Shown here: in pieces, positions 1 to 56,683 of the stretch
Layout: each line of letters starts with the position of its first letter
How positions within the stretch are numbered: position 1 is the stretch's first letter
DNA from: Candidatus Micrarchaeota archaeon
GTDB lineage: Archaea > Micrarchaeota > Micrarchaeia > Micrarchaeales > CABMGC01
Length of the DNA: 64,000 bases
NCBI GenBank assembly: GCA_021852055.1
Contig: JAJZOD010000003.1
Coordinates: 82,846-146,845 of the forward strand
Direction of reading: 5' to 3'
The notes under the pieces: model-generated
The model's input: only the letters and a program-made list of their open reading frames with translations
Database searches by the model: none
What the model was told of the DNA's origin: nothing
Position numbers and translations under genes: made by a program

Positions 1-1
1 A

Positions 2-3000
2 GGAACAGGCAGCACCAGCAGCGTAACAACAGGAGACCTTCAGAACGGCCTTGAAGGACCGGTGCCTCCAAATGCAACCAGCAACAATTCTACAGTCAAA
101 GTGCAGCTCCAGTACTCTGCAAGTTCGCCATCAATAACAGCAACATACGAAGCAAGCACAGGCAATGTGATAGTAACGGGCAGCGGCTTCACCCCCGGGG
201 GCTCGGTCAGCATATCAGTCAGCTCCACATCCGGCACAAGCCTTGCAACTGTAAGCACAACAGCCAGCTCTGCTGGCGATATTAACTCTCAGATACCTGT
301 GTCATCTTACAGCGTAGGCAACCTCGATATCTCCGCAATAGACGTGAAAACGTTTGCATTTAGCAACACCGCAGAGGTTTCTATTACCAGCTCTCCTCCT
401 TCCTCGTTAAGCATAACAGCAACATACGAAGCAAGCACAGGCAATGTGATAGTAACGGGCAGCGGCTTCACACCCGGAGGCTCGGTCTCACTTGCATTCA
501 ATATTAACCACCAGATAGGCAGTACGACGACATACACAACTACTGCGGATTCAAGTGGTGGCATAAACTTCCAAGAGCCTGCTGCAAAACAGCCAACTGC
601 TTATATCTATTACATCGAAGCTACTGATGTACAAACAGGAAGCACAAGTGCAGAAGCGTCGGTAAATGTGCCGGCAATAGTCATACCAACAATGTCACTA
701 ACTGCATCTTATGACGCTGCTGCTGGCACTATCTCAGTCAGCGGCTCCGGCTTCACTCCCGGAGGCGCGGTGAATGTGCAGTTGTTCCTGAGCAGCTCCA
801 ACAGCTTCGTGAGCAGCGTCGCTGCAGTTGCAGGCTCAGATGGAGACTTCACAACTTCAATAAACGTAAACAGCCAGGAAACAAGCGCAATAACGTACTA
901 CGTCATGGCTACAAATAAAGACACAAATGCTGCAGCAAAAAGCGGCTCGGTCACAGTGCCTGCTGCTGCCCAAAACCCAGAGAACATAAACGCAGTATAT
1001 AACGAGCAACTTGGTGCAGTGGTTGTCACAGGCTCCGGCTTCAACATCAACACCAAAGTAACAGTAAGCTGCGTTGTATTATACGGCACTAACCCTGCTC
1101 CATCCTCTGTCTCAGATGCATGCACTGCAACTACACAGTCAAATGCCACAGGCGGCATAAATGTTACCCTTCCTCCAATGAGTCCATCGCCAAACTATTA
1201 CATATACGAGAACATATACGCGTTGGAGATAAACAGCCAGGGTGTATCGTTCGGTCCCGGAGCCTCAACACACATTACAATACCACAAAGGAGCGCAGGA
1301 ACAACTGCTTTGATAAAGCTTGAGAATACCAATGCAAACGGCATCTGCTCCAATGTATCCTGCTTCCAGCTTACATACAGCCAGCCAAGCCAGCTCAGCA
1401 GCCTGCAGCTGCAGGACATAGCTGCATCGCCGAGCGGCCAGCAGGTCTATATTACCGGACAGTTCGCAAGCGGCATATACGTAATGAGTGGCAATGATCT
1501 CTCGCTGCAATCAACAATCCCTCTCACGTTCTCTGCAAGTTCCGGCACTACAACGAATATTGGCAGCATAACTCCGGCTAATCTGAACATTACATACTGG
1601 CTTGCAAACAACGGGCTCTACAACCAGTCTATCTCTTTCACAAAGCCTGGCAGCCAGTACATAACTGGAGGCTCCGGCTTCGACCAGGCATATTTCCACC
1701 ACCCGCTCGGCATAGCTGATGTGAATGGGTACCTATACGTGCTTGACGACTGGAAGGGTATAGTAAGCAGCTCGGATGCAAATGCAAACAGCGGCACCTC
1801 TACAAGCGGTATATTCTTCAATATAGTAATGCTAAGGGTCCTAAACTCAACAGGCTCAAACGTGCCTATACAGCCTACATTCTTCAATGACATGTACAAC
1901 AATATCGCCTGCACGCCTACTGGCTACCTTGCAACCCACCAGAACACCTGCATACCAAGCACAACCCTACAGAATGTAAAGAACAGCGACTGGTGCACAG
2001 TCAACGAGCAAACAGGCCAGGCGTGCTCCATAGCGCCCATATCAGGTTCGTGCACTTTCTCATCGTTAGGCAGTGCAATAGCAGGCAGTTTCACCGGTGG
2101 TGGAGTCAACTATGCAGAGTACCAGTGCATAAGCACGGGCTCCCTTTCATCAAATTACACCTCGCTTGCTACAGGTTCAGGCTCATACAACAAAAACGTA
2201 TATCCCCCTTATGGCTGGGTAATTTCTGCAAACATAACCGGCGTAAGCAACGGAGCCGTAGGCCAGTCCTATAGCTTATGCTCGTCATTCAGCTGCACGA
2301 AGAATCCGACACAGCTTCTAGGCGGGGCAAACTCCTACCTGGAGGGATATGCGCCTGTAGGTCCACAGCTGCGTGCAGTCGGAAGCTGCAGCAGAGCAGG
2401 GGAATGCAACGCCTTTGAAACAATCTACAGCCCTGGCTTCTCAGTCAACTACAACAACACTGCTGTTATACTGTTCCCCAATTCAACAAACAGCAACAGC
2501 GCCCATGGGACAGATGAAGGCTTAGACAACTGGGGCGAGATACTCATCGCAAACATAAACTGGCAGAACTATACTAACTTGTTTTCGGGAATCACCAACT
2601 ATACCTGTTATGTAAAAGGCGAGGAGAACGGCAATCAGAATGTCTGCGGCGGAAAGTTTGTGAACGACCACTACTATTACACGTACAACAGCCTAGTCGA
2701 CAGCTTTACTGCGCCGATATACCTGCTTGGAGATCCGTTCAAGTATTACGAGAATCTTGGAACATCGCCTGTTCTGGGCTTTGCAAACCAGTTCTACTCA
2801 ACATACAACAACGGCAACCAGGGTTCTGGTTCCGGTTCGCCGCAAAGCCAGATATCTTCACAGTGCACGCAGCAGGTCCAGTCCGGTAGCATACCGACGG
2901 CATGCCTGGGGGCCAGCGGAACGCCTCCTACCCCAAGCCTGTCCGGCCTAAGCCTTGGCACTACAACTGGCCAGCTCGCAGTACCAATACTTTCTACGCC

Positions 3001-4738
3001 TCTGCTTCAGAGCAGCGTCAGCGGCGTAGTTCTTGTACCTTACACATACAGTGGTACTCTTGTGCAGAACTGGAGGGACTTCCAGCTCTTGTTCGGCGGA
3101 TACGGATGCCCCGGAAGCCTGCCCGACTGGCCTACAGTTACAACAAACAAGATAGAGTACACTTATCAGGAAGTGCCTGTATCGTCGAAGCCTACTCCTC
3201 TGGCAGCAAACATAGAGGGCGGCGATACATACATCGGTTATAGGGACGCGCTGGGCAGCGACATATACATGCCGAACCTGTCGGATTTTGGCGTATCGCT
3301 GCCTCCGCAGGTCCTGTTCAATGTGTCGAGCAACAGGGTTTTCGGAAACATATACATAAACCTGACAAACAACAAGACTACAAACAAACAGACGCTGCTT
3401 AATGCCACTGAAAGGCTCGAATACGTAGTGAATACATACAGCATAGGGCAGTACATGAAATTCCAGAGCATAAGCTCTGTGCCAGTAGGCCCATATTACG
3501 GCACACAGTACGCTGCAAGGCTTCAGAACAAGCCTAGTACCAATATAGCAACAGGCTTAAACTACACCCAGCTGCCTTCCGGAGGCTCTGGTTTTGTCTA
3601 TCTTAACCTTTTCAATATCTATAAGCAGTTTGTCTGGCAGAGCCCTCTAAACCTCTATATAAACAGCACAGCCCAGGGCCTGCCTTATGGGTACAGGCGC
3701 CTGATTTATGTATATCAGGACAGGTTCAACAACACCATATTCATGCCATTGGACGCTGACATAGCTAAGTTCACTGTCATCAACATGAGCGTAATCCCGA
3801 GCATAAACCCGACAAATGCAAACCAGACAACACTGCAGATAAACGGCACTGTAGGCTACTACCAGTTCAGCAACAACGGCCTTGTGTTCGAGCCGCTTAC
3901 GGGCAACAGCCTGTACCTATACTACAACACCAATCTCAATTATATTGATTATCCTCCGACTACAGATGCGTTCCATGCAACTGCGTGCGCCTTCGGTTCT
4001 CCTGTAAACAAATTCATCCAGACCCTCACATGCAACCTTGCAAATCCTATAAATTCACCGCAATCTGCAACTGCCAATATAGTGACATACAGCCCGCAGT
4101 ACAATGCACAGGGCGCATGCAACCCAGCAAACGTACTTCTGCCTCCAGTAAATTACAACTGCAATGTGTACAACAGCGGCAAGCAGTGCAGTACAGGCCC
4201 TTACGGCCAGCGCGAATACTGCGTAGGGCTGGATTCACAGGGCGATGGCATATGCACCAGCCAGGTGGGTCTTATAGGCGTAGTGCCTACAAATGCGCTT
4301 GGGTACTTCTCGACAAATATAGTGGCTTGCGGAATAGCCGATGTAAACATACAGGCAAACTTCTATGGCTCGCCGCCTCCGGAGCCTGTCAATGCCACAC
4401 AAGCGCCTTTGGGCATGGCTGCAAATGTCGCAATTCCAGATACGGGCGTGCCTCTGCCAGGGACAAACTTCCAGCACCCTACGCAGATCACATTCCCTGT
4501 TGACAACTACACATGGCTGAACAATGACACCATAGTACAGGCCCAGATAGGCCTTTGGGAGCTAGCTTACGGCGACATTCAGGCCCTCGAGGTTATAGGG
4601 CTGATTTCGTTAGTCGGTGCTGTAATAGCCGCAAAGCTCATATTAGAGTCCCGAAGCAAAACCAGAAGGAAAAGCGTTAAAAATAGAATAAGAAAACCAG
4701 AGAGAACAAGCCATAGAAACCGTAGAAACAATAAATAA
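2..4738 (+). CDS. Giant surface (S-layer/adhesin-like) protein, 5'-truncated by the window edge. Has tandem Ig/IPT-like domains, an NHL-like segment and a C-terminal TM anchor with a basic tail
   Basis: The reading frame is open from nt 2 with no upstream stop. The motif TGSGFTPGG recurs four times in the first ~350 aa. Composition is N/S/T/G/Y/C-rich with many N-x-S/T sequons. The C-terminus LISLVGAVIAAKLIL is followed by RSKTRRKSVKNRIRK. Confidence 0.8.
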   Translation, partial: GTGSTSSVTTGDLQNGLEGPVPPNATSNNSTVKVQLQYSASSPSITATYEASTGNVIVTGSGFTPGGSVSISVSSTSGTSLATVSTTASSAGDINSQIPVSSYSVGNLDISAIDVKTFAFSNTAEVSITSSPPSSLSITATYEASTGNVIVTGSGFTPGGSVSLAFNINHQIGSTTTYTTTADSSGGINFQEPAAKQPTAYIYYIEATDVQTGSTSAEASVNVPAIVIPTMSLTASYDAAAGTISVSGSGFTPGGAVNVQLFLSSSNSFVSSVAAVAGSDGDFTTSINVNSQETSAITYYVMATNKDTNAAAKSGSVTVPAAAQNPENINAVYNEQLGAVVVTGSGFNINTKVTVSCVVLYGTNPAPSSVSDACTATTQSNATGGINVTLPPMSPSPNYYIYENIYALEINSQGVSFGPGASTHITIPQRSAGTTALIKLENTNANGICSNVSCFQLTYSQPSQLSSLQLQDIAASPSGQQVYITGQFASGIYVMSGNDLSLQSTIPLTFSASSGTTTNIGSITPANLNITYWLANNGLYNQSISFTKPGSQYITGGSGFDQAYFHHPLGIADVNGYLYVLDDWKGIVSSSDANANSGTSTSGIFFNIVMLRVLNSTGSNVPIQPTFFNDMYNNIACTPTGYLATHQNTCIPSTTLQNVKNSDWCTVNEQTGQACSIAPISGSCTFSSLGSAIAGSFTGGGVNYAEYQCISTGSLSSNYTSLATGSGSYNKNVYPPYGWVISANITGVSNGAVGQSYSLCSSFSCTKNPTQLLGGANSYLEGYAPVGPQLRAVGSCSRAGECNAFETIYSPGFSVNYNNTAVILFPNSTNSNSAHGTDEGLDNWGEILIANINWQNYTNLFSGITNYTCYVKGEENGNQNVCGGKFVNDHYYYTYNSLVDSFTAPIYLLGDPFKYYENLGTSPVLGFANQFYSTYNNGNQGSGSGSPQSQISSQCTQQVQSGSIPTACLGASGTPPTPSLSGLSLGTTTGQLAVPILSTPLLQSSVSGVVLVPYTYSGTLVQNWRDFQLLFGGYGCPGSLPDWPTVTTNKIEYTYQEVPVSSKPTPLAANIEGGDTYIGYRDALGSDIYMPNLSDFGVSLPPQVLFNVSSNRVFGNIYINLTNNKTTNKQTLLNATERLEYVVNTYSIGQYMKFQSISSVPVGPYYGTQYAARLQNKPSTNIATGLNYTQLPSGGSGFVYLNLFNIYKQFVWQSPLNLYINSTAQGLPYGYRRLIYVYQDRFNNTIFMPLDADIAKFTVINMSVIPSINPTNANQTTLQINGTVGYYQFSNNGLVFEPLTGNSLYLYYNTNLNYIDYPPTTDAFHATACAFGSPVNKFIQTLTCNLANPINSPQSATANIVTYSPQYNAQGACNPANVLLPPVNYNCNVYNSGKQCSTGPYGQREYCVGLDSQGDGICTSQVGLIGVVPTNALGYFSTNIVACGIADVNIQANFYGSPPPEPVNATQAPLGMAANVAIPDTGVPLPGTNFQHPTQITFPVDNYTWLNNDTIVQAQIGLWELAYGDIQALEVIGLISLVGAVIAAKLILESRSKTRRKSVKNRIRKPERTSHRNRRNNK
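134..486 (+). repeat. Two near-identical 74-bp segments (134-207 and 413-486) spaced 279 bp (93 codons) apart inside the surface-protein gene
   Basis: A 59-nt core (ataacagcaacatacgaagcaagcacaggcaatgtgatagtaacgggcagcggcttcac) is identical in both copies and there are 2 mismatches in the next 15 nt. Both encode SITATYEASTGNVIVTGSGFTPGGSVS. Confidence 0.9.
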
Positions 4739-4771
4739 ACAAAAGCCTGTTCCTAACCCTGCGACGGACGT

Positions 4772-4897
4772 TTAACTCTCATCGTCGTCGACGTCTTCGT
4801 CCCAGTCCTCTTCATCGTCGCCTTCCTCATCCTCATCGAAGTCGTCATCGTCTTCGTCTGCAGGTTTCATTTTTGTCTTTGTATCCTTATCTGCCAT
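4772..4897 (-). CDS. Candidate 41-aa extremely acidic small protein (MADKDTKTKMKPADEDDDDFDEDEEGDDEEDWDEDVDDDES)
   Basis: ATG at 4897-4895 and TAA at 4774-4772. A GTGAT Shine-Dalgarno-like motif lies 4 nt upstream of the ATG. The plus-strand frame over the same bases has no start codon. The ORF is too short for the ORF track. Confidence 0.35.
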   Translation of the reverse strand: MADKDTKTKMKPADEDDDDFDEDEEGDDEEDWDEDVDDDES

Positions 4898-5049
4898 ATT
4901 ATCACAGCTTTAAGCCTTTAGGCAAATACCTAATATCAGAAAACTATTTAAATGTATTTGTCAACTTTGGCTTTAGTGCGATATGCGCCCAATCCGGCAT
5001 CCAAGCAAACATCTATTTAGTTATTTCCAGCATTTGATATTGCGATAGA

Positions 5050-5955
5050 ATGGCAGCCAAACCACAAGCCGTATCAACAAGTGGGCACTCAAGGAGGAAT
5101 ACGATAGCAATAATACTGGTGGCGCTGTCAGTTTTTGTAGGATTGTACATAATAACAAAGTATACTGGCTTTGCGCCAAGCACAAATTCGCAGGAGATAG
5201 CGCTCAGCGCAATAATAGGCATACTCGGCATTGAAGTTCTGGGATTTATAATCTATATGTACATGAAGGGGTCATTAAAGGAGGAGGAAGCCAGCACGCT
5301 GAGGAATCTTTTCCGTATAATAGGCTACACTATTCTTGTAATATTCCTGTTCTCGCTGCTTTCAATAAACATCACTGGCCTGCTGCTGACAACGGGCTTT
5401 CTCGGCATAGTACTGGGTCTTGCAGCCCAGTCAACGCTCTCAAACTTTATCTCAGGAGTGTATCTGCTTTCAAGCAAGGCATTCGAACCAGGAGACAGGG
5501 TTGTAATACACACCTGGCAGTATACAATGCAGCCGCAGAGCTACCCACATGACAAATTTGTTCCTGGCTTTTCCGGGAAGATCAAGAACATCGGGCTTTT
5601 GTATACAGAGCTCACCAACGATGAAAGTGTACCTGTCTACATGCCAAACAGCATAGCAGCAAGCGCCCTCATACTCAACTACGGCCGCGCAAAGGAGGAG
5701 TTTGTAAACTTATTGTTTGACATGCCTGTATCAGTGCCATTTGAAAATGTCAAGAAGCGCATACAGGAAGTCCTCAAATCTAAGAAGGTGACTAATTACA
5801 AGATAAATATGGAGTACCTGCATAATGACATATATGTTGTAACTGTACGCATGGAGTGCGAGTTTCAGGACAGGAGGCAGCTCCGCTCGGAAATATACCA
5901 GAAGATAGTCACCGACATCCAGCGCAGCCCAAAAAGGCATGATAAAAAGCAATAA
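5050..5955 (+). CDS. Small-conductance mechanosensitive channel (MscS family)
   Basis: N-terminal TM helices plus the pore-helix-like motif GLAAQSTLSNFISGVYLLSSKAFEPGDRV. Confidence 0.8.
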   Translation: MAAKPQAVSTSGHSRRNTIAIILVALSVFVGLYIITKYTGFAPSTNSQEIALSAIIGILGIEVLGFIIYMYMKGSLKEEEASTLRNLFRIIGYTILVIFLFSLLSINITGLLLTTGFLGIVLGLAAQSTLSNFISGVYLLSSKAFEPGDRVVIHTWQYTMQPQSYPHDKFVPGFSGKIKNIGLLYTELTNDESVPVYMPNSIAASALILNYGRAKEEFVNLLFDMPVSVPFENVKKRIQEVLKSKKVTNYKINMEYLHNDIYVVTVRMECEFQDRRQLRSEIYQKIVTDIQRSPKRHDKKQ

Positions 5956-5997
5956 GCAGGATTTAATATCTTTGCAGCTTATTACTAAGCTTGTCAT

Positions 5998-6109
5998 GGG
6001 CTCGTAGCGCAGTGGCAGCGCGCCCGCTTTGCAAAACTTCTTGGAAAGAAGTTTTATCAAGAAGAACCAGAAAAGCGGAAGGTCGCGGGTTCGAATCCCG
6101 CCGAGTCCA
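5998..6109 (+). tRNA. tRNA-Ala(UGC) with a 40-nt intron at the canonical 37/38 position (intron 6034-6073). CCA is not encoded
   Basis: Manual cloverleaf. Acceptor GGGCTCG/CGAGTCC includes the G3:U70 Ala identity pair. D arm GCGC-AGTGGCA-GCGC. Anticodon arm CCCGC-TTTGCA[intron]A-GCGGA, with a C27-A43 mismatch. Variable loop AGGTC. T arm GCGGG-TTCGAAT-CCCGC. Discriminator A. Confidence 0.85.
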
Positions 6110-6142
6110 TAAAACTTCTTGGGAAGAAGTTTTATCAAGAAG
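6033..6142 (+). repeat. 32-nt hairpin-containing repeat, once inside the tRNA-Ala intron (6033-6064) and again immediately 3' of the tRNA (6111-6142)
   Basis: aaaacttcttggaaagaagttttatcaagaag versus aaaacttcttgggaagaagttttatcaagaag, with one substitution in the hairpin loop. The 10-bp stem is AAAACTTCTT/AAGAAGTTTT. Confidence 0.9.
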
Positions 6143-6176
6143 CTGAAGGAAATTTAAGTGACAAACGCGCAAGCGG

Positions 6177-6210
6177 GTCTGGGTGCGATTGCGGTTTCAA
6201 AGCCGAATCC
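6177..6210 (+). repeat. Left copy of a 34-bp perfect direct repeat (gtctgggtgcgattgcggtttcaaagccgaatcc)
   Basis: Identical to 10724-10757. The 3' part gccgaatcc resembles the tRNA-Ala T-loop/stem segment ttcgaatcc. Confidence 0.9.
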
Positions 6211-6309
6211 CATCCCCAATTTTTTACTGTGGTATTTGTTCTTTAGTAATGAACAATAGTGTTCATTGGTAATGAAAACATTTAAATATCTTAGGCTCTA
6301 AATGAAATC

Positions 6310-7530
6310 ATGATACTAAAAGAAACACTTAGACAGATAGTCAAAGCTCAGAGGAAAGACTTAGAATCGTTCAGCTACGGGGTAGAAAGGGAAGAGTTGA
6401 ATGAGATAAAACTCAATATGCATTACGCATTGATACTATCAGGTATAAGGCGATGTGGTAAGAGTACTCTACTTCACCAATTGCTTAAAAAGCTTCCAAA
6501 TTTCTATTATCTAAACTTTGAGGACACACGGCTAGATAGCTTTCAAGTTGAGGATTTCGAAAAGTTAGATGAAATCTTCAAGGAAGATTACGGTGAATCC
6601 GAATATTATCTTTTCGATGAAATACAGAATATTTATAAATGGGAGCTTTTTGTAAGATCCAGACTAGACAAACAGAAGAAATTTATTATTACAGGCTCTA
6701 ACGCTTCACTTTTAAGTAAGGAGCTTGGTACTAGACTCACGGGCAGACACATCAACATGGAACTGTTTCCATTCTCCTTTATGGAGTCGCTTTCTATGAC
6801 TAAGGTAAAGGCAAGCGCAACTTCATTCTCAGAATACTTAAGAAGCGGAGGGTTTCCAGAATATCTGAGATATAAAAAACAAGAAATACTGCGCGAGTTA
6901 TTAACAGACATAATACAAAGAGATATTATAGTAAGACACAAATTGCGCGATTCTAAAACAGTAAAGACACTTGCGTTATATCTGCTTAGTAACACGGGCA
7001 ACGAGTTTTCATATAATAACCTTAAGAAGATGTTCAATCTGGGATCAGTGAATACCGCAATAGCATTTGTTTCTTATTTTGAGGACAGCTACCTTCTATT
7101 TACTGTGCCAAAGTTTGATTACTCGCTTAAAAAACAGATAGTTAATGCCAAAAAAGTATATTCTATAGATAATGGTCTTTCTACCTCAAATTCAGCTTCG
7201 TTCTCTTCAGATTTAGGAAGGATGTTAGAAAATTCTGTATTCTTGCATCTTCGTAGGAAATATAAAGAAATATTCTACTTCAAAGGAAAAAGAGAATGCG
7301 ATTTCTTAGTAAAGGAGCAAAGCAAGATAAAAATGGCAATACAAGTCTCGTATGAGCTAAACGAAGGAAACAAACAGAGAGAATTTGACGGACTTCTTGA
7401 AGCTATAAAAAAGTTTGATTTGGCAGAAGGATTAATACTTACATTTGATCAAGAAGACAAATTCGAGATTGAGGGAAAACACATAATAGCAAAACCGGTT
7501 TGGAAATGGATGCTAGAAAGCAATTTGTAG
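6310..7530 (+). CDS. AAA-superfamily ATPase of the AAA_14/DUF4143 type
   Basis: Walker A motif SGIRRCGKST and Walker B-like motif YYLFDEIQ. Length (~400 aa) and a C-terminal region (ECDFLV) are typical of the archaeal DUF4143 ATPase family. Confidence 0.75.
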   Translation: MILKETLRQIVKAQRKDLESFSYGVEREELNEIKLNMHYALILSGIRRCGKSTLLHQLLKKLPNFYYLNFEDTRLDSFQVEDFEKLDEIFKEDYGESEYYLFDEIQNIYKWELFVRSRLDKQKKFIITGSNASLLSKELGTRLTGRHINMELFPFSFMESLSMTKVKASATSFSEYLRSGGFPEYLRYKKQEILRELLTDIIQRDIIVRHKLRDSKTVKTLALYLLSNTGNEFSYNNLKKMFNLGSVNTAIAFVSYFEDSYLLFTVPKFDYSLKKQIVNAKKVYSIDNGLSTSNSASFSSDLGRMLENSVFLHLRRKYKEIFYFKGKRECDFLVKEQSKIKMAIQVSYELNEGNKQREFDGLLEAIKKFDLAEGLILTFDQEDKFEIEGKHIIAKPVWKWMLESNL

Positions 7531-7791
7531 TGTATGAAAGTGAAAAAAGAGATTAAAATTGTTTTGCCTATAAGTCCGTGTTCAAAAGAAATATCTCCAA
7601 TTTGGATTTTACCGAGTACACAAACCTTTTTGGAAATGTTTGGCGAAAACACTGGGTGCGGTTACAGCTAGATTTACACCGTATCTGTTTATATTTCTAA
7701 ACGCGGTGTAATCTGTGTGCGAAGACACAGATGTTCGCATTTTCCGAAATATGATCTACGGTGTCTTGAATGGCTAGAAAAATAGACGACA

Positions 7792-7853
7792 GGGCTCGTG
7801 AGCGCGTTCCGTTCGCAACAGAAAGGTCGCGGGTGCGATCCCCGCCGAGTCCA
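7792..7853 (+). pseudogene. Decayed 62-nt copy of tRNA-Ala. Both acceptor strands and the T arm are kept, while the D and anticodon arms are deleted
   Basis: GGGCTCGTGAGCGC...TTCGCAACAGAAAGGTCGCGGGTGCGATCCCCGCCGAGTCCA aligns to both ends of the 5998-6109 gene and keeps the last bases of its intron (CAGAA). It is followed by a third copy of the trailer hairpin (7855-7876). Confidence 0.75.
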
Positions 7854-7878
7854 TAAAACTTCTTAAAAAGAAGTTTAT

Positions 7879-8511
7879 TCAATATGGATTACTTAGTTTG
7901 CCAGAATCTGCCAAAAGCTTATATTTTTTTACAAAATTAAGTACAGATTTGGAAGTGTGCTTATCATACACCTTTAGGTATTTGTGCACTTTTTTGATTT
8001 CTATGGACCGCAAAAGTCCATCATAGTTCTGAGGAGGTAACTTTACTTTGTAATAGAACAGGTCTATTAACGTCTTCTCTGGATCTGAAACTGGCAATTT
8101 TAACACACCGTAATTTATTATATCAAACCCAAAAAAGTATCTTGTTGGCATATGGTGCACAAATATAACATCTTTAGGATCGTCGAATATTGTCGTACGG
8201 TTTGAACGTATTTTTTTTATTGTGAGTATTTCTGGTCTAGAATTCTGTATCCAAAGATCCCTTAATGTTAGTGCAGATAGCAACCCATAATAAAAAGGTG
8301 TATACGCAAACCCCGATACCATATCATTCTTTTTAAATGTATATACGCTTTTTTTCAATGAATACAAATCACCATTACTTTTCATGTATGATAAGATTCT
8401 CGTAAGATTTGATGATTTTATCCTCTTATTGCTGAAGTATAGTCTAAGGTCTCTGTGTGTGAAAACTGGATAATCTGAAAAATGCCTGGTTATTTCATTA
8501 ACTATTGTCAT
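7879..8511 (-). CDS. abiEi: AbiEi-like antitoxin/transcriptional regulator (COG5340-type, N-terminal wHTH)
   Basis: The N-terminal pattern ...PVFTHRDLRLYF...LTRILSYMKSNGDLYSLKKSVYTF and the C-terminal pattern ...LPVSDPEKTLIDLFYY are typical of AbiEi. It overlaps the adjacent nucleotidyltransferase gene by 14 nt. Confidence 0.65.
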   Translation of the reverse strand: MTIVNEITRHFSDYPVFTHRDLRLYFSNKRIKSSNLTRILSYMKSNGDLYSLKKSVYTFKKNDMVSGFAYTPFYYGLLSALTLRDLWIQNSRPEILTIKKIRSNRTTIFDDPKDVIFVHHMPTRYFFGFDIINYGVLKLPVSDPEKTLIDLFYYKVKLPPQNYDGLLRSIEIKKVHKYLKVYDKHTSKSVLNFVKKYKLLADSGKLSNPY

Positions 8512-9187
8512 TTATCCACTCCTTAAGTCTGTTTATCATTAGTTCAAACGATGGCGGCAGACCTGTTATTATCAAGTGATCCAGACTTGAGATATCTGAA
8601 GGGGGATTATTTTCTATCTTGGCAACCAGATTCTTTATTTTTTTAACAGTTTTATGGTCAGCCTTTTTTATTAACGAAACCAAATACCACATGTCATATA
8701 AGTCATGGGCTTCTGGATGCTTGAAGCCATCCTCATCATTAAGCTTATCTTCATATGCTACTATTTTCTCCTCCAATAAATCTACTGGGCTAAGAGATAG
8801 TACCACAATTTTGCTTTCATCAATCTTTGAATAGTCAGCGTGTATGCCTTTCTTATACTTAAAATTTATATCGATCTTCATTTTTGTGCCAACTAATTCG
8901 ACAATAAAATGCATTGTGTCATTTGACCTGCTGTATCCTTTTTCCTTAATCACAAACCCATTTTCTTGCAGAAACTTAGAAACTGCTCGGTATTCTTGCA
9001 TCTTTTCCGAAACTGTTTTCACTTTCATATAAAAATCAAGATCCCTCGAAAATCTGTTCCCTGAATAGCAACGCCATATTGCTGTTCCACCATGAAACAC
9101 GAGATTCGTATATCTACTGTATAATATCTCAATTAGTATATCTTCAAGTTTTGCTTTTTCAACTTGTGCTGGGTCTCTTAAGTTCAT
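8498..9187 (-). CDS. abiEii: AbiEii/AbiGii-family nucleotidyltransferase toxin (type IV TA / abortive infection)
   Basis: Motif FHGGTAIWRCYSGNRFSRDLDFY matches the family signature GGTAL..Y...RFS.DLDF. Size is 229 aa. Confidence 0.75.
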   Translation of the reverse strand: MNLRDPAQVEKAKLEDILIEILYSRYTNLVFHGGTAIWRCYSGNRFSRDLDFYMKVKTVSEKMQEYRAVSKFLQENGFVIKEKGYSRSNDTMHFIVELVGTKMKIDINFKYKKGIHADYSKIDESKIVVLSLSPVDLLEEKIVAYEDKLNDEDGFKHPEAHDLYDMWYLVSLIKKADHKTVKKIKNLVAKIENNPPSDISSLDHLIITGLPPSFELMINRLKEWINDNS

Positions 9188-9208
9188 AATATCATTAACT
9201 ACACTTTA

Positions 9209-9224
9209 TTACATATTTATGTAA
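9209..9224. promoter_or_regulatory. Perfect 16-bp palindrome TTACATATTTATGTAA 22-37 nt upstream of the abiEii start. Candidate autoregulatory operator overlapping the promoter
   Basis: The inverted repeat is read directly from the sequence. AbiEi proteins are known to autoregulate through promoter inverted repeats. Confidence 0.35.
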
Positions 9225-9281
9225 TAATATACATTTATATAACTGTATGTTAAAACAAACCGTTGTAGCTTTATCCGAAAG

Positions 9282-9712
9282 TCATAGACAACTTAAGAAT
9301 ATTATACCCAGTAGGACTTTTTTGATATAATGTTCGCCAATAAGTTTCGTCTTTCCGTATAGCGTTGGTGGGTCTTGATTTACACCGAGTGTAGAAATAT
9401 ATAGTACCTTAGAATTAATCATGTTTGCAGCCGTAACCACGTTTTTGGTTCCTTCAGAATTAATTGCGAGGGCACTTTTAGGATATTCTTCACATACTTT
9501 CCTACTTGGAATTGCAGCAGCATGTATAGTTAATTCCGGCCTTATGGTTAAGAAAGCTTGAACAACCGCTTCCTTATTAGTAATGTCCAGTTCTATTAAT
9601 TCATTGAATAATTTGTTTTTCTGAAATGTGCCAATTAATTCATAGTGCTTGCTTAGGTTCGTGAATATGCTTGCGCCTACATACCCGTTGCTCCTGTAAC
9701 TAAGATCTTCAT
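9282..9712 (-). pseudogene. Frameshifted and 3'-truncated NAD-dependent sugar reductase/epimerase (RmlD / dTDP-4-dehydrorhamnose reductase-like)
   Basis: The minus strand reads MKILVTGATGM* and then, after a -1 shift, GYVGASIFTNLSKHYELIGTFQ...IHAAAIPSRKVCEEYP...STLGVNQDPPTLYGKTKLIGEHYIKK. This contains a Rossmann GxxGxxG and a YxxxK. It ends after ~140 aa, against ~280 aa expected. Confidence 0.7.
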
Positions 9713-9713
9713 T

Positions 9714-10574
9714 CTAAAACTTTGTTTGATTTATATCTATGACAATTGGTGCGTGGTCACTCGGAGGCTCAAGGTTTTCTATAGGGACGCGCTCTTCTTT
9801 GTCTACCCATATCCGATCTACCAGACCTAGAATACCTTTGTCACCTAGGACTAAATCGAAACGCAGACCTTCGTCACGGTTAAATCCATCACGCATGTAA
9901 GGCCACCATGTGAAAACACGCTCTTGGGTTTTTGTTCGGAGTATGTCTTGAAGCCGTGTTCCTTGAAGTCTCTTTAGCCAAGCTCTTTCTTCTGGAGTAC
10001 AATGGATCCGGTCCTTAAGTCCTTCTGGATCCCATACGTCGCAATCGTCTGGAGCAACATTAAAATCACCCACAATAAGAAGAGGAGGAGTTCGAGGGAG
10101 ATGTTGCAGCCAATCTCCAAAAGTTTCCATCCAACGGCCTTTAAGCAGGAATTTATCGCTAGTTCTGTCGTCTCCGTTTATCACATAAGCATTAACCAAT
10201 CGCACTCCTCCAATACACGCCGATATTACTCTGGCTTCATCAGACGCAGGATCTTTTGGAAAACCACGCAAAACTTCAGAAAACTCTAGATTATTTTTCA
10301 TTTCATCCACCGTGGAAAGCTTGCTTTTAGGAAAAGCCGTTAAATTGTGTTGTTTAGCTTGACCACGAATCAGGATTGCCACACCATTATAGCTAGTTTG
10401 GCCGTAAAGTATTGAATAGTAACCTGCAGTGCTCAATTGGGCTTCAGGAAAATCTTTGTTAGCTACCTTAGTTTCTTGCAAGCACACCACGTCCGGTCTA
10501 TGGCGTTTGACTAAGGCCAAAAACCTAGGTAGTCGTGCTCGGATAGAATTTACATTCCAAGAGATAATGCGCAT
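9714..10574 (-). CDS. xth: Exodeoxyribonuclease III (AP endonuclease, EEP fold)
   Basis: MRIISWNVNSIRARL...VVCLQETK...GDFNVAP...SDHAP, the full ExoIII motif set. Confidence 0.9.
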   Translation of the reverse strand: MRIISWNVNSIRARLPRFLALVKRHRPDVVCLQETKVANKDFPEAQLSTAGYYSILYGQTSYNGVAILIRGQAKQHNLTAFPKSKLSTVDEMKNNLEFSEVLRGFPKDPASDEARVISACIGGVRLVNAYVINGDDRTSDKFLLKGRWMETFGDWLQHLPRTPPLLIVGDFNVAPDDCDVWDPEGLKDRIHCTPEERAWLKRLQGTRLQDILRTKTQERVFTWWPYMRDGFNRDEGLRFDLVLGDKGILGLVDRIWVDKEERVPIENLEPPSDHAPIVIDINQTKF

Positions 10575-10723: not shown

Positions 10724-10757
10724 GTCTGGGTGCGATTGCGGTTTCAAAGCCGAATCC
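10724..10757 (+). repeat. Right copy of the 34-bp perfect direct repeat
   Basis: Identical to 6177-6210. Another fragment, gccgaatcccgcg (10613-10625), resembles the tRNA-Ala T-arm 3' half. Confidence 0.9.
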
Positions 10758-12248: not shown

Positions 12249-13034
12249 TTACCTTACTGAGAAAGGACCTGCGGGCAGATGCTGCATGATATAATCTACA
12301 TCATCATATCCGAGCTTTTTTGCTATAAGCTTGGCTGCATCGGATTTCTTCATCTTGCCAAGAGATATGCCAACAAAATCATTTATTCCGCGGTTTTCAC
12401 AGGCTGTGAGCGGTGCAATGCATGCAACCTTGCGCTTCTTGCCTTCTGCGCCAAGCTCTTCCATGAAAGCGCACAACCCTAAGGGCGTATTCTTGTACCA
12501 TTCACGCTCGCCTTTCAGTACGAAACTGCCCTTTCCTAATGATCCTGAGTTTCTTGACTTTGTAACCTGCCCGCGATCCAGTGCGTATACATCTACAGTG
12601 GTCTGCGAGTTGTCCCACGCTTTTGAAAACGATGCTGAAAGCTGTGCGGCTTCCTCCCTGTCTTTCCTGCCTGAACCCTTTCCGTCCTTAAGTATTACAA
12701 CCGAGGCGCCGAATATATCTGCATGGAAGAACAGGTCCGCTTCTGCGAAGTGCTTTGAGTTCAGCTCCTCGTTCTGGTCTGCGCTCCTTCCCCCTATAGC
12801 TAGAAGCCCAGAGCTTGTGAAGAACCAGTTGAACTTCTCGAACCACTCCCTCCTCTCCAAGGTCTTCATCTTTTTCTGCTTCTCCTGCTGCTCCTCTACC
12901 TTTGCAAATTTCGCCTTAAGCTCTTCAGCAGACAACCGCGCTCCCTCTGCCTTAGCCTTTGCTTTTTTTGATTTCTCAAAATACGATTGTGCGTTCTCCT
13001 GCGCACTCTTAGTGAAGTCTATTACAACATCCAT
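12249..13034 (-). CDS. NFACT-R/DUF814 domain protein (Rqc2/Tae2-related RNA-binding domain)
   Basis: N-terminal coiled coil, then ADLFFHADIFGASVVILKDG, which is typical of DUF814. Confidence 0.55.
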   Translation of the reverse strand: MDVVIDFTKSAQENAQSYFEKSKKAKAKAEGARLSAEELKAKFAKVEEQQEKQKKMKTLERREWFEKFNWFFTSSGLLAIGGRSADQNEELNSKHFAEADLFFHADIFGASVVILKDGKGSGRKDREEAAQLSASFSKAWDNSQTTVDVYALDRGQVTKSRNSGSLGKGSFVLKGEREWYKNTPLGLCAFMEELGAEGKKRKVACIAPLTACENRGINDFVGISLGKMKKSDAAKLIAKKLGYDDVDYIMQHLPAGPFSVR

Positions 13035-13053
13035 GCCCCTGCCCAGATGGGAG

Positions 13054-13254
13054 TCATGCCACGACTCCTATTATGATAGATATTACAAATCCAACTATAC
13101 CGAGAAGTATAGTTCCCAAAAGCACAACCTTCATGGTTCTCATGAATGCATCTGTTCCGGGTTTGTAGCTTACGCTCATCACGTGCTTTGAATTGGATAT
13201 AAAGCCCCTCAGGCGCTGAATTATGTTGATGTTCATAATACAACCAATACGCAT
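13054..13254 (-). CDS. secE: Protein translocase subunit SecE/Sec61-gamma. The true start is possibly the internal Met at 13236
   Basis: ...SYKPGTDAFMRTMKVVLLGTILLGIVGFVISIIIGVV has a single C-terminal TM helix. It sits immediately downstream of ftsZ, as in many archaea. Confidence 0.7.
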   Translation of the reverse strand: MRIGCIMNINIIQRLRGFISNSKHVMSVSYKPGTDAFMRTMKVVLLGTILLGIVGFVISIIIGVVA

Positions 13255-13310
13255 TGACTATAATATACTTGGCAGCTAGCATTAAAAAGGCTTTCTATAC
13301 AGTTGCGTTA

Positions 13311-14399
13311 TTATTCACTGTCATCAAAAATCTTGTCAAGGTCAAGATCTCCGGAGCCGCTGCCGCCTTTTCTTAAATTCAGATTCGAATAGTCTGCAAA
13401 TTCTACGCCGCCCATTACAACCATGACCTTGACTGCGCTTTTCTGCATTGATGCATCAATGCGGGCGCCCCATTTCATCATGGCGTCCTCACTTATCCTC
13501 CCTGCAACCTCCTGGAATACCTTCTCTGCCTCGCGTAGCGTTAGGTCTTCTCCTCCCACTATGTTTACAAGGGCTTTTTTAGCTTTAGACAAGTCTACAT
13601 CAAGAAGCGGAGAGTTAAGCGTATTGTTTATGGCTATGGATGCCCTGTCGCTTGTTTGCGTCGAGTTCGCCTCGCCTATGCCTATCACTGCATAGCCGGA
13701 GTCCTTGAGAACACTCCTGAGGTCGGCAAAATCAAGGTTGACCATGCCTGGTTTGGTGACCATCTCAACGATGCCTTTTGTTGCGTTTGCAAGCACTTCG
13801 TCGCTTATCCTGAAGGCCATATTGAGCGGCAGGTCAGGGGCTACAGCCAGCAACTTGTCATTAGGTATTATTATTGTAGTATCTGTTACCCTTTTTAATT
13901 TTGAAAGGCCCTCAAGCGCATTACGCATGCGTGCCTTGCCTTCGCTTGAGAACGGGAGCGTTACAATGGCAACTGTAAGTGCGCCTGCCTCTTTCGCCTC
14001 ATGCGCTATTATGGGTGCAGAGCCGGTCCCTGTGCCACCTCCAAGCCCGCATGTTATAAACACAAGCTGCGAGCTTTCAAGCACATGGCGTATCTCATCC
14101 TTGCTCTCTACGGCAGACTCCTCACCCATTTTCGGATCAGAGCCTGCTCCAAGGCCTTTTGATACCCTCTTTCCTATAAGCACCTTCCTGTTTGAACGCG
14201 TTTTTGCAAGATGCGATGCATCTGTGTTCATGGCTATAAGCGTAGTGCCATCTATGTTGAGCTCTGATACCCTTGATATGGTGTTCGAGCCGCTCCCTCC
14301 GGCACCTACTATGCATATCTTCGGCTTGGCAGACTCTATAAACTTGAGAAGCTCTTCATCATCCTGTGATATCACTGCATTGCTAATTACATCAGACAT
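13311..14399 (-). CDS. ftsZ: Cell division GTPase FtsZ
   Basis: Tubulin signature GGGTGTGSAP, plus NTDA and VGAGGSGSN motifs. Confidence 0.95.
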   Translation of the reverse strand: MSDVISNAVISQDDEELLKFIESAKPKICIVGAGGSGSNTISRVSELNIDGTTLIAMNTDASHLAKTRSNRKVLIGKRVSKGLGAGSDPKMGEESAVESKDEIRHVLESSQLVFITCGLGGGTGTGSAPIIAHEAKEAGALTVAIVTLPFSSEGKARMRNALEGLSKLKRVTDTTIIIPNDKLLAVAPDLPLNMAFRISDEVLANATKGIVEMVTKPGMVNLDFADLRSVLKDSGYAVIGIGEANSTQTSDRASIAINNTLNSPLLDVDLSKAKKALVNIVGGEDLTLREAEKVFQEVAGRISEDAMMKWGARIDASMQKSAVKVMVVMGGVEFADYSNLNLRKGGSGSGDLDLDKIFDDSE

Positions 14400-14501
14400 T
14401 TCGTCGCCCTGTTAATATTTATTAGCAAAAACATAAAAAGATTGCTGACAACGGCGTGCCTCCTCTATAATAGCAATTAATAGCAATTCGCATGACTGCA
14501 T

Positions 14502-56651: not shown

Positions 56652-56683
56652 ATAAGACTGTCAAATAAAGCATTAAATGCAAT

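Follow-up and report, generated by a model that had tools for sequence, protein, structure and literature searches.

The window, as we call the whole 64-kb stretch of Micrarchaeota DNA that was analysed, carries a tRNA-Ala(UGC) gene interrupted in its anticodon loop (Table 1). Rfam placed the tRNA at 5998-6109 with 56.9 bits (gathering score 29) and with an insert of 42 nt where the model has 2 positions; this insert and manual numbering confirmed the 40-nt intron that a preliminary description of the DNA had located in the gene. The gene was assigned to tRNA-Ala(UGC) because the manual cloverleaf contained U8, A14, G18G19, G3:U70, A73 and the anticodon UGC. When the intron was taken out, the exons formed a canonical cloverleaf with a 7-nt loop (UUUGCAA) and with G3:U70 and A73 in place, although the exact cut may move by 1 nt either way because runs of A lie beside both junctions. 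A default ARAGORN run missed the gene, and ARAGORN -i reported a tRNA-Cys(gca) at 5997-6110 in the wrong register, with G at position 8. We rejected this call on register and isotype and adopted the Rfam alignment and manual numbering, because ARAGORN either missed or misregistered the gene. Upstream of the gene, TTTAATAT is a putative promoter; for comparison, the ATPase gene at 6310 carries TTTAAATA 29 nt before its ATG. Downstream, a T6 run probably ends the tRNA transcription unit, to judge from its sequence. Part of the conserved 48-nt block that lies before this run recurs at 10724-10754 in the window, and the block is also found 3' of tRNA-Ala(CGC) in locus L221. The tRNA-Lys gene of the window has a different small hairpin and a T-rich trailer.

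Table 1. Features of the tRNA-Ala(UGC) locus and of the downstream pseudogene, in window coordinates.
Feature	Position	Strand	Details and evidence
TATA-like box TTTAATAT	5962..5969	+	36 nt upstream of tRNA position 1; read from sequence; putative promoter
5' exon of tRNA-Ala(UGC), positions 1-37	5998..6033	+	anticodon TGC 6030-6032; Rfam and manual cloverleaf
Element copy 1	6033..6064	+	stem 6033-6042/6046-6055, loop GGA 6043-6045; covariance model R1, 52.9 bits
40-nt intron, canonical 37/38 position	6034..6073	+	Rfam insert; orthologous introns in L045 and L053
CAGA, 3' strand of the 4-bp H helix	6068..6071	+	pairs with tRNA positions 32-35 (UUUG, 6028-6031); manual pairing and ViennaRNA evaluation
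3' exon, positions 38-73	6074..6109	+	Rfam; CCA not encoded
Element copy 2, 3' trailer	6109..6142	+	12-bp hairpin 6109-6120/6124-6135; R1, 52.8 bits
Conserved 48-nt block	6160..6207	+	blastn, L008 tail against window
T6 run	6220-6225	+	sequence read; 85 nt beyond the hairpin
tRNA-Ala(CGC) pseudogene	7792..7853	+	Rfam, 32.2 bits; 10-nt D-arm deletion, C30:A40 mismatch
Element copy 3	7855..7882	+	loop AAA; R1, 30.9 bits, partial, model positions 3-30

The intron consists almost wholly of a hairpin element (copy 1), whose stem is followed at 6056-6064 by the tail ATCAAGAAG, as seen by pattern matching and folding. The repetition of this sequence in the trailer, reported earlier, was reproduced: the 32-mer matched at 6033-6064 with no mismatches and at 6111-6142 with one, against no matches in 100 shuffles, and a further match to the hairpin core lay at 7857-7875 (three matches versus 0.04 expected). 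Several details nevertheless had to be amended. The trailer copy is present, but it does not follow the discriminator base directly, since T6110 lies between A6109 and the repeat. The hairpin also stood, whereas the TTTTATC described as following it is not a unit: TTTT is the 3' strand of the stem, and it is ATCAAGAAG that comes after. Copy 2 has the loop GGG and the tail CAAGAAG at 6136-6142. Its hairpin was extendable to 12 bp by folding, then taking in A73, and was present in the minimum-free-energy fold, and the L062 gene has this element conserved in its own trailer. The third copy retains an intact stem but is partial (30.9 bits with R1, against about 53 for the others), its tail having been replaced by the 3' end of a 210-aa gene that converges on it from the minus strand (stop codon 7879-7881). 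The decayed tRNA-Ala next to it is indeed a pseudogene, of tRNA-Ala(CGC) rather than a copy of the UGC gene, as identified by alignment with the intact Ala(CGC) genes of L072, L110, L106, L204 and L221. Its anticodon-stem change is G-to-A, and L062 carries a more decayed homolog in the same relative place. All three copies in the 64-kb window are located in or beside tRNA-Ala genes, copy 3 being the one at the pseudogene.

These copies belong to a family. The element is about 36 nt long and comprises a 10-bp stem, (N)AAACUUCUU/AAGAAGUUU(N'), a free loop of 3-5 nt and the tail AUCAAGAA. Exact-pattern scans found it in MAGs of Micrarchaeota, Aenigmatarchaeota, Woese-, Pace- and Nanoarchaeota and in metagenomes; as copies were gathered by exact patterns, family divergence and copy numbers are lower bounds. 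Among the matches listed by a scan for the bare hairpin, most were chance terminator-like bacterial hairpins, and matches were kept only if they had the tail. With R1, at least about 95 full-length copies were found in 545 kb of element loci, a density of about one copy per 8-kb locus, and the 64-kb window holds three. A viral scan gave 34 matches, none with the hairpin, and in it no link to viruses was found. Compared with Rfam families other than tRNA, the element had no match, whether at the gathering score or with E allowed up to 1. The literature searched on DPANN tRNA introns and on MITEs yielded no description of the element, and the motif string was not found in the papers searched.

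The suggestion that the hairpin is under selection was supported by covariation at the closing pair, which our search patterns left unconstrained. Among 75 copies this pair was UA in 43, AU in 13, GC in six, CG in four and GU or UG in three, with six unpaired, so that all four Watson-Crick types were represented. Scan 1 was run without the tail in its pattern and scan 2 without the 5' strand, and each of these parts was conserved in the copies recovered with the pattern built on the other. Stem and tail are constant in sequence while loops and nearby intron sequence are free to vary, and both are kept across phyla and among tRNA-Thr introns with diverged exons, loops and 3' parts. This constancy looks like purifying selection on a cis function rather than neutral junk. 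Moreover, the tail covaries with the stem (CUUCUU/AAGAAG/CAAGAA versus CUUUUU/AAAAAG/CAAAAA; nine variants, no counterexamples). A triple helix of the purine motif, with the tail mirroring the 3' strand, was fitted by two variants (AAAGAG stem, CAGAAA tail) but was countered by L072, which has the same tail with a standard stem, and by a geometry that clashes with the paired AAA/UUU base of the stem. Mismatches of the G:U type outnumbered A:C by six to two, numbers too small to separate selection at the RNA level from selection at the DNA level. A CRISPR-like solitary repeat, a C/D or H/ACA guide RNA, a K-turn, an uptake sequence and a recombinase core site were judged on sequence alone and dropped, as the boxes, arrays, copy density or spacer geometry that define them were absent.

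About half of the family is found at tRNA genes. Among the matches listed, about 44 of 85 non-redundant copies adjoin or interrupt a tRNA gene; anticodon-loop introns contain about 25 of them (Thr-UGU/CGU, Ala-UGC/GGC, Arg-UCU, Asn, Cys and others), D-loop introns of tRNA-Glu another two (L113 and L159) and a T-loop intron of tRNA-His a single one (L216). Element-bearing introns occur in at least nine tRNA species, and at least nine copies lie in tRNA trailers, starting 0-2 nt past the discriminator base. Most other copies are intergenic and often begin at a stop codon: among the matches listed, 15 of the non-tRNA copies start no more than 3 nt from a stop codon on the same strand. Flanking genes are mostly co-oriented with the copy (17 versus 4 upstream, 16 versus 7 downstream), and the tRNA-associated copies are all sense, except for one antisense member in each inverted pair (L069 intron, L021 trailer). 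An mRNA intron at the ends of these ORFs was rejected, the downstream ORFs being complete, independent genes. The intron had been described as holding a copy of the tRNA's own trailer hairpin, which is not what the distribution shows, for the same family element is present in the introns and trailers of other tRNAs and beside protein genes across DPANN phyla. This comes close to the dispersed repeat unrelated to tRNA processing that the preliminary description had named as speaking against its own reading.

The order of parts in the gene (5' half, hairpin, short spacer, 3' half, hairpin) had also raised the idea that two split tRNA half-genes had fused, each retaining its trailer hairpin, and the presence of the element at the ends of independent genes would suit such a history. 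The split tRNA genes of Nanoarchaeum equitans (Randau et al., 2005, via PMC4033280) resemble our case in that they too are from DPANN and that RNA beside the exon ends forms a relaxed bulge-helix-bulge for the splicing endonuclease. However, the halves described here are contiguous, with one upstream promoter, no complementary leader and trailer and no half-genes. Instead of Nanoarchaeum-type leader-trailer complementarity, the intron folds on itself and its sole pairing with an exon is the 4-bp H helix. Introns of at least nine tRNA species contain the element, including some in the D loop and the T loop, and the ortholog in L062 is without an intron. Among the element loci there was no isolated half-gene; L087, considered as a tRNA half, was rejected as the end of a protein-coding ORF. 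The two exons lie 40 nt apart in one gene, and the lone TATA-like sequence in the intron, TTTTATCA, begins 22 nt before the 3' exon, compared with 29-36 nt at other genes of the window. The intron-less ortholog, the D- and T-loop introns and the lack of leader-trailer complementarity argue against the fusion, which we consider extremely improbable.

We then consider the splice motif, which had been described as something other than a textbook bulge-helix-bulge. Pairing and folding indicated that this holds for the 5' side alone, as the 3' half is textbook: the 3' splice-site bulge has 3 nt (A6072, A6073 and A6074, the last being position 38) and is followed by anticodon-stem positions 39-43. 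When the pre-tRNA-Ala was folded against a strict hBHBh', the 5' splice site had no 3-nt bulge. If the hairpin stands beside the splice site, h' and H are 12-14 unpaired nt apart on the 3' strand, and an alternative pairing to the tail gives a 5 by 3 internal loop. Because the 5' side is without the strict 3-nt bulge, the motif was classed as the relaxed hBH type. The minimum-free-energy fold of the window's pre-tRNA (-44.8 kcal/mol) uses other pairings than the bulge-helix-bulge model (-38.2) and joins CUUCUUGG with UCAAGAAG. In all 24 of the element-bearing anticodon-loop introns analysed, a 4-nt stretch pairs with tRNA positions 32-35 in the geometry seen in the window's gene, giving the hBH half. 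These positions pair with the 4 nt before the last two intron bases at 4/4 in 19 of the introns and at 3/4 in the rest, and this pairing is achieved by many differing sequences. The offset from the hairpin to the 5' splice site differs by several nucleotides among introns, so that the hairpin is not a cleavage ruler. The epsilon-2 endonuclease of ARMAN-2, a Micrarchaeon, cleaves hBH motifs in vitro (PMC3239211), and DPANN endonucleases with L2 or L3 loops accompany disrupted tRNA genes (PMC5829648).

The element might instead combine an intrinsic-type terminator with a TATA-like TTT(T/A)ATCA promoter for downstream sequence in an intergenic terminator-promoter cassette. The hairpin is followed by U3-U4, the TTT(T/A)ATCA sequence resembles the local TATA boxes TTTAATAT and TTTAAATA, a trailer start predicted about 30 nt past the TATA would fall at 6160, the onset of the conserved 48-nt block, and the tRNA-Lys gene, with its differing small hairpin and T-rich trailer, can be counted on the same side. 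As a terminator, however, the element has only two G-C pairs among the ten of its stem and a short U run; it fell short of an intrinsic terminator as defined by a G+C-rich stem and a U run of at least 5, a terminator scan gave no flag, and the true T6 run sits further downstream at 6220. An efficient terminator within the intron would also abolish the tRNA, and terminators have no need of a conserved stem sequence. Termination was rejected as the main role on the scan and the T6 run. The tail fares no better as a promoter: the distance from the TATA-like start to the ATG ranges from 12 to 68 nt and is mostly 18-26 nt, against 29 nt for a leaderless gene of the window, and its spacing to starts and to the 3' exon does not fit the 29-36 nt of other window genes. 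We rejected a promoter role on this spacing and regard the cassette as a whole as improbable.

Presence/absence polymorphism was observed at three orthologous sites. In strain L008 the intron is present and the trailer copy absent, while L001-L006 have the trailer copy; L062 shows the reverse, with a trailer copy but no intron in its tRNA-Ala(UGC) ortholog. The third case is L182, where the element interrupts rpoE' behind its third codon and has a copy of ATGTTCAAG on either side, and the site is empty in four related lineages (seven contigs, L284-L290; 84-92% protein identity). The L182 copy is a lineage-specific insertion with target duplication. At least one copy is therefore a clean insertion (L182), and there is one strain-level loss, that of the L008 trailer. 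Flanking direct repeats were found at L172 (13 nt), L166 (8-10 nt) and L182 (9 nt or more), with arms that are not abutted. They were clear in 3-5 of 82 copies, and as the overall length distribution of these 82 was near null, target-site duplication was not supported as a general trait of the family.

Apart from the hairpin, whose arms could serve as inverted repeats, the element lacks classical terminal repeats. In other respects it resembles REP/BIME sequences and MITEs: it is a short, imperfect and extragenic palindrome, often placed at gene 3' ends, single or in inverted pairs (L021, L069), dispersed, and polymorphic among strains. REP sequences are species-specific and tied to RAYT transposases, and MITEs have terminal inverted repeats and short, regular target duplications. 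The element, in contrast, is conserved across phyla, has an asymmetric conserved tail, no known transposase and irregular, rare flanking repeats, and sits in tRNA genes as a spliceable intron.

The conservation of stem and tail invites a reading in which mobility is secondary or absent and the element acts in cis as an RNA module kept by purifying selection, namely a processing, stability or protein-binding hairpin marking the 3' boundary of the RNA upstream of it (tRNA, 5' exon or CDS). Introns and trailers would then be mere places of expression, as for the C/D box sRNA carried by the archaeal tRNA-Trp intron (mentioned in PMC12558985). Both introns are conserved beyond the splice motif, but ours has no C or D boxes and no apparent guide function, and the element also occurs outside introns. 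In favour of a cis module are the invariance of stem and tail beside variable loops and adjoining intron sequence, the covarying closing pair, the sense orientation of tRNA-associated copies save for members of inverted pairs, and the orientation that copies mostly share with their neighbours. The same holds for their starts, which follow position 37, the discriminator base or a stop codon by 0-3 nt, and for the covariation of tail and stem, which suggests an alternative helix or tail docking such as the CUUCUUGG/UCAAGAAG pairing of the minimum-free-energy fold. On the other hand, the trailer copy is dispensable in strain L008, and with about one copy per 8-kb locus and three in 64 kb the element is no general gene-end signal. 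The variable offset to the 5' splice site deprives it of a role as cleavage ruler, the L182 insertion within a gene start seems accidental, and the G:U and A:C counts (6 versus 2) leave the level of selection, RNA or DNA, undecided. Overall, we find a cis module without substantial mobility somewhat unlikely.

How the window's own intron acquired its copy is a separate matter. Between the intron copy and its own trailer 1 of 34 columns differs, and the distance to the trailers in L204 and L221 is equally 1, whereas 5-7 columns separate it from the orthologous Ala-UGC intron copies of L045 and L053; only 2.9% of family pairs are as close as this intron and trailer. Because the intron copy is so unusually near to tRNA-Ala trailer copies, it may plausibly have come from a trailer by local copying or gene conversion. 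In a stronger form of this account the intron arose, or was overwritten, by a purely local duplication or gene conversion of the gene's own trailer into the anticodon loop, with the wider family irrelevant here, and the intron copy does belong to the trailer subtype, with an A-U closing pair, a GGR loop and the tail AAGAAG. Three observations weigh against it. In the related Micrarchaeota L045 and L053 the tRNA-Ala(UGC) gene also has an intron with the element, at an identical position, and as they share it the intron predates this lineage; the Ala(CGC) trailers of L204 and L221 are as close as the gene's own; and a 3-nt deletion with one compensating change would also convert an L045-type junction. 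A purely local origin or overwriting of the intron is a real possibility, to which we give less than even credence.

Spread of related sequences among tRNA genes has precedents. Sequence-related families of tRNA introns in Thermoproteales have been attributed to 'large-scale intron transposition' (Fujishima et al., 2010, summarised in PMC4033280). As there, similar introns occur in different tRNA species and positions together with broad-specificity endonucleases, and late gain by sequence spread is the common theme. Unlike the Thermoproteales families, the present element is from DPANN and has a defined hairpin and tail common to several phyla, and it also occurs in trailers, in spacers and beside protein genes, in one case with a target duplication, features that PMC4033280 does not report for those families. 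For the tRNA-Thr of Caldiarchaeum, intron gain through integration of a mobile element has been described, involving a 1.8-kb recombinase element (PMC3293823). That gene has tRNA fragments nearby and a recombinase-bearing insertion, and its structure varies in the population; at the window's locus, too, DNA varies between strains, L008 has an integrase fragment and the Ala(CGC) pseudogene lies just downstream. The intron described here differs in being a 36-nt hairpin repeat common to many tRNAs.

Together, these data lead us to favour, with moderate confidence, the reading that the gene contains a spliceable intron made of a mobile, REP/MITE-like hairpin element, and not the remains of fused split-tRNA halves. 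What was established directly is the gene model, the family to which the element belongs, the pairings, the conservation of the H helix and the polymorphisms in presence or absence; splicing, a mechanism of mobility and any function of the element we infer as follows. The splicing endonuclease most likely cuts the pre-tRNA at 6033|6034 and 6073|6074, guided by a relaxed bulge-helix-bulge that would consist of the anticodon stem, the 4 bp formed by CAGA with positions 32-35, and a 3-nt AA|A bulge; on the 5' side cleavage would fall at the foot of the element hairpin, and the exons would be ligated once the intron is excised. Copy 2 would be the trailer element that Micrarchaeota tRNA-Ala genes usually have, and would be discarded with the 3' trailer. 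The element itself may be a small, non-autonomous, REP/MITE-like mobile repeat that persists where it is harmless, past gene ends, in spacers, and in tRNA genes if spliced out, a rescue that would need sequence 3' of the purine-rich tail able to pair with the exon. The covariation of tail and stem is a counterpoint to this account, as a passive repeat fails to predict it. Further counterpoints are the constancy of stem and tail across phyla, the irregular 5' splice site, a minimum-free-energy fold that departs from the bulge-helix-bulge model, the small number of copies with clear flanking repeats, and the lack of classical terminal repeats and of a linked transposase.

The origin of archaeal tRNA introns is debated, with remnants of split genes on one side and late gain from moving sequences on the other, and the evidence for late gain has so far been the similarity of introns within one crenarchaeal order. 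An element found in three settings, in tRNA introns, after tRNAs and beside protein genes, is a concrete candidate for a sequence that turns into an intron and may show how such introns arise. More tentatively, and short of even confidence, we propose that the roughly 36-nt hairpin found across DPANN is a repeat that still moves, or did so until recently, and gives rise to a tRNA intron when it lands in a tRNA loop. A landed element would be rescued by a broad-specificity endonuclease once 4 nt beyond the purine-rich tail can pair with the exon; at other sites it would become a piece of a gene end or spacer. The element causes standard tRNA finders such as ARAGORN to miss or mis-assign genes, and model R1 can flag them. 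We offer it as an explanation of the frequent disruption of tRNA genes in DPANN archaea, and if the mobile-intron reading is true, it would provide a sequence-defined vehicle for the late gain of archaeal tRNA introns.

The tRNA-Ala(UGC) gene of the window carries a BHB-type intron that is predicted to be spliced and is built from a hairpin element conserved in DPANN archaea; the trailer contains this element a second time. The gene and its intron, which bear out the preliminary description, were identified from the Rfam alignment, in which the anticodon loop holds a 42-nt insert against 2 model positions, together with manual numbering (U8, A14, G18G19, G3:U70, A73 and anticodon UGC). ARAGORN in default mode did not call this gene; with introns allowed, its tRNA-Cys(gca) call was one base out of register and was rejected.

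Coordinates of the tRNA genes, intron and repeats (window positions unless a locus is named)
Feature	Position	Strand	Remarks
tRNA-Ala(UGC)	5998-6109	+	Rfam tRNA match, 56.9 bits (gathering score 29)
tRNA-Ala(UGC) intron	6034-6073	+	40 nt, canonical 37/38 position
tRNA-Ala(CGC) pseudogene	7792-7853		10-nt D-arm deletion, one stem mismatch
31-nt direct repeat	6177-6207 and 10724-10754		two ends of low-G+C stretch
tRNA-Arg(UCU), 83-nt intron with two opposed element copies	L069 3590-3747	-	

As had been noted, a 32-nt sequence at 6033-6064 recurs in the trailer at 6111-6142 with one mismatch, and shuffled sequences gave no matches. One base separates the trailer copy from the discriminator, which it was said to follow directly, and the TTTT read as following the hairpin belongs to the stem. 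A third occurrence of the hairpin core, at 7857-7875 (3 matches in the window against 0.04 expected), has lost the tail; the decayed tRNA-Ala before it is indeed a tRNA-Ala pseudogene, but it derives from tRNA-Ala(CGC) rather than from the UGC gene. The three window copies score 52.9, 52.8 and 30.9 bits with a covariance model of the element, and a search of the window with this model found no others. About 150 nt 5' of the pseudogene (window 7617-7853) are 86% conserved in another Micrarchaeota species (L062 7040-7252), where a tRNA-like remnant, more decayed still, occupies the matching relative place. It is odd for a dead tRNA and its upstream region both to be conserved; the locus may function as a tRNA-like unit or mark where a mobile element ends. 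Elsewhere, the trailer of tRNA-Lys(UUU) (56640-56683, minus strand) contains an unrelated small hairpin (GCATTTAATGC) and then TTTATTT, which suggests that tRNAs in this genome are commonly followed by a hairpin and a T-rich stretch.

The sequence had been taken for the tRNA's own trailer hairpin, a view that we abandon because copies occur across DPANN phyla, in many tRNA introns, in trailers and at the ends of protein genes. A hairpin pattern scan of a genome collection returned, among the matches listed, many chance bacterial hairpins and a coherent set from DPANN MAGs (Micrarchaeota, Aenigmatarchaeota, Woese-, Pace- and Nanoarchaeota); in the DPANN set, (A/U)AUCAAGAA comes after the hairpin, although this lay outside the search pattern. 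A metagenome scan with the 3' strand and tail gave at least 121 matches, at least 39 of them with a matching 5' strand, again outside the pattern; in the viral scan, 0 of 34 matches had one. The 75 distinct copies aligned from the matches listed share an invariant stem core, with a free loop of 3-5 nt and a variable closing pair (UA 43, AU 13, GC 6, CG 4, GU/UG 3, unpaired 6). The covariance model built from this alignment detected at least about 95 full-length copies in the 545 kb of loci listed, usually one per locus. No Rfam family covers the element, its sequence was not found in the literature searched, and as far as could be checked it is previously undescribed.

Among the matches listed, tRNA genes host about 44 of 85 non-redundant copies. 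About 25 of the listed copies lie in anticodon-loop introns (Thr(UGU/CGU), Ala(UGC/GGC), Arg(UCU), Asn(GUU), Cys(GCA) and others); tRNA-Glu has an element-bearing D-loop intron in two cases, and tRNA-His an element-bearing T-loop intron in one. A few copies lie in spacers 5' of tRNAs, and at least nine sit directly 3' of the discriminator of tRNA-Ala(UGC, CGC, GGC) or tRNA-Val. All listed tRNA-associated copies are sense, except the antisense members of inverted pairs at two loci, L069 and L021. In the L069 intron, a sense CUUUUU/AAAAAG variant is accompanied by an antisense standard copy, and their tails can pair together. At least 15 non-tRNA copies start no more than 3 nt from the stop codon of an ORF on the same strand, and the genes flanking the listed non-tRNA copies are mostly co-oriented. 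On an Aenigmatarchaeota contig (L015), an Rfam match to RT-16 RNA (RF03019, 67.4 bits; 5165-5292, plus strand) was seen a few kb from a tRNA cluster bearing two element copies.

The splice pairing had been described as not a textbook bulge-helix-bulge, which applies to one side of it. The 3' half is textbook: CAGA at 6068-6071 is paired with UUUG of positions 32-35, and the 3-nt bulge A,A|A38 lies between this helix and the anticodon stem. Cleavage on the 5' side would fall at the base of the 10-bp hairpin, with 12-14 nt between hairpin and H helix on the other strand, and this irregular 5' side makes the motif a relaxed hBH; in the minimum-free-energy fold of the pre-tRNA, CUUCUUGG is paired with the tail UCAAGAAG instead. 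The H helix recurs in all 24 anticodon-loop introns analysed: positions 32-35 pair with the 4 nt just ahead of the final two bases of the intron (4/4 in 19 introns, 3/4 in the others), and the 3' strands of this helix vary with the anticodon loop (CAAG, CGGG, CAGG, GAAG, GAGG, GCGG, GCAG, CAAA, CAGA). Because the pairing is kept although the sequences differ, the comparison lends strong support to a real hBH splice motif in element-bearing introns. Such substrates are cut in vitro by the epsilon-2 endonuclease of ARMAN-2, a Micrarchaeon (PMC3239211), and disrupted tRNA genes are associated with extra-loop DPANN endonucleases (PMC5829648). A fused pair of split tRNA halves, the other origin proposed for this layout, finds no support: the element is also present in D-loop and T-loop introns, tRNA-Ala(UGC) has no leader-trailer complementarity, its intron contains no promoter at a workable distance, and no half-genes were found among the loci listed.

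An identical neighbouring MscS-like protein is encoded on nine contigs, and all of these that reach tRNA-Ala(UGC) carry the same intron. The trailer copy is dispensable, since in the same-species contig L008 a different trailer without the hairpin precedes a 48-nt block shared with the window and, after it, an integrase-like fragment. The window most likely derives from a Micrarchaeota genome: it matches the Micrarchaeota MAG L035 at 85% identity over 1.4 kb, and L062, L072 and others have counterparts of its tRNA, trailer and pseudogene regions. The intron copy is of the tRNA-Ala-trailer subtype. It shows 1 differing column when aligned with its own trailer or with the trailers of L204 and L221, against 5-7 columns with the orthologous intron copies of L045 and L053; among the matches listed, 2.9% of family pairs are as close as intron copy and trailer. 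Intron gain by duplication of flanking sequence is partly supported, in a weaker form. The intron itself is older, being shared with other Micrarchaeota; local gene conversion from a trailer copy would be the simplest account of the likeness, and a plausible one.

The DNA 3' of tRNA-Ala(UGC) differs between strains (L001, L002, L003). The gene lies upstream of a low-G+C stretch (0.36-0.37 at 6001-10000, against 0.46-0.50 at 1-6000 and 0.47 from 12001 on) encoding an AAA_14/DUF4143 ATPase, an AbiEii toxin and an endonuclease/exonuclease/phosphatase family protein. A conserved block 3' of the trailer (6160-6207, CAAGCGGGTCTGGGTGCGATTGCGGTNNNAAAGCCGAA), 31 nt of which recur 4.5 kb downstream, is also present in L008, L221 and L003; in L008 and L221 conservation extends beyond the block, and in L008 this longer region adjoins the integrase-like fragment. 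The block resembles an attachment site for an element integrating downstream of tRNA-Ala. Toxin-antitoxin-type genes abound in the region 3' of the ATPase gene (locus ~12500-14500), a strain-variable hotspot with three gene sets on the three same-species contigs L001, L002 and L003 (a GTPase and others; a 210-aa gene and AbiEii; a 72-aa gene and a PIN-domain gene). At the window start, a very large ORF (62-4738, plus strand, 1558 aa in the window) extends to at least 3348 aa on longer contigs (L001 1-9689) and has no Pfam match at all.

We favor the interpretation that the hairpin element is a REP/MITE-like repeat that is tolerated where insertion is harmless and that splicing removes from tRNAs. 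Mobility is indicated by the L008 polymorphism, by the L062 ortholog, which has the trailer element but no intron, by the inverted pairs, and by direct repeats of 8-13 nt flanking copies (L182 720-800, L166 ~1940-2020, L172 ~1145-1215). In L182, the element follows codon 3 of rpoE', ATGTTCAAG is repeated on its far side and the gene restarts intact; the element is absent from this site in four related lineages (seven contigs, 84-92% protein identity). The flanking repeat of both L182 and L166 takes in the start codon of the downstream gene along with its first codons, so that the gene was rebuilt after insertion, leaving a 3-codon mini-ORF upstream. A function in cis is a less probable but arguable alternative: stem and tail are identical where exons, loops and the remaining intron have diverged, copies sit very regularly right where the upstream unit ends, and stem and tail change in concert (CUUCUU/AAGAAG/CAAGAA versus CUUUUU/AAAAAG/CAAAAA or CUUUU/AAAAG/CAAAA), in nine variants with 0 counterexamples (L021, L069, L242, L248, L046, L097, L211, L129, L189). 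Further CAAGAAA-like repeats often lie 3' of the tail (L086, L027, L225, L040), and the covariation could mean that an alternative helix forms, that the tail docks on the stem, or that a binding site is repeated. The element is a defined candidate for a sequence that becomes an archaeal tRNA intron.
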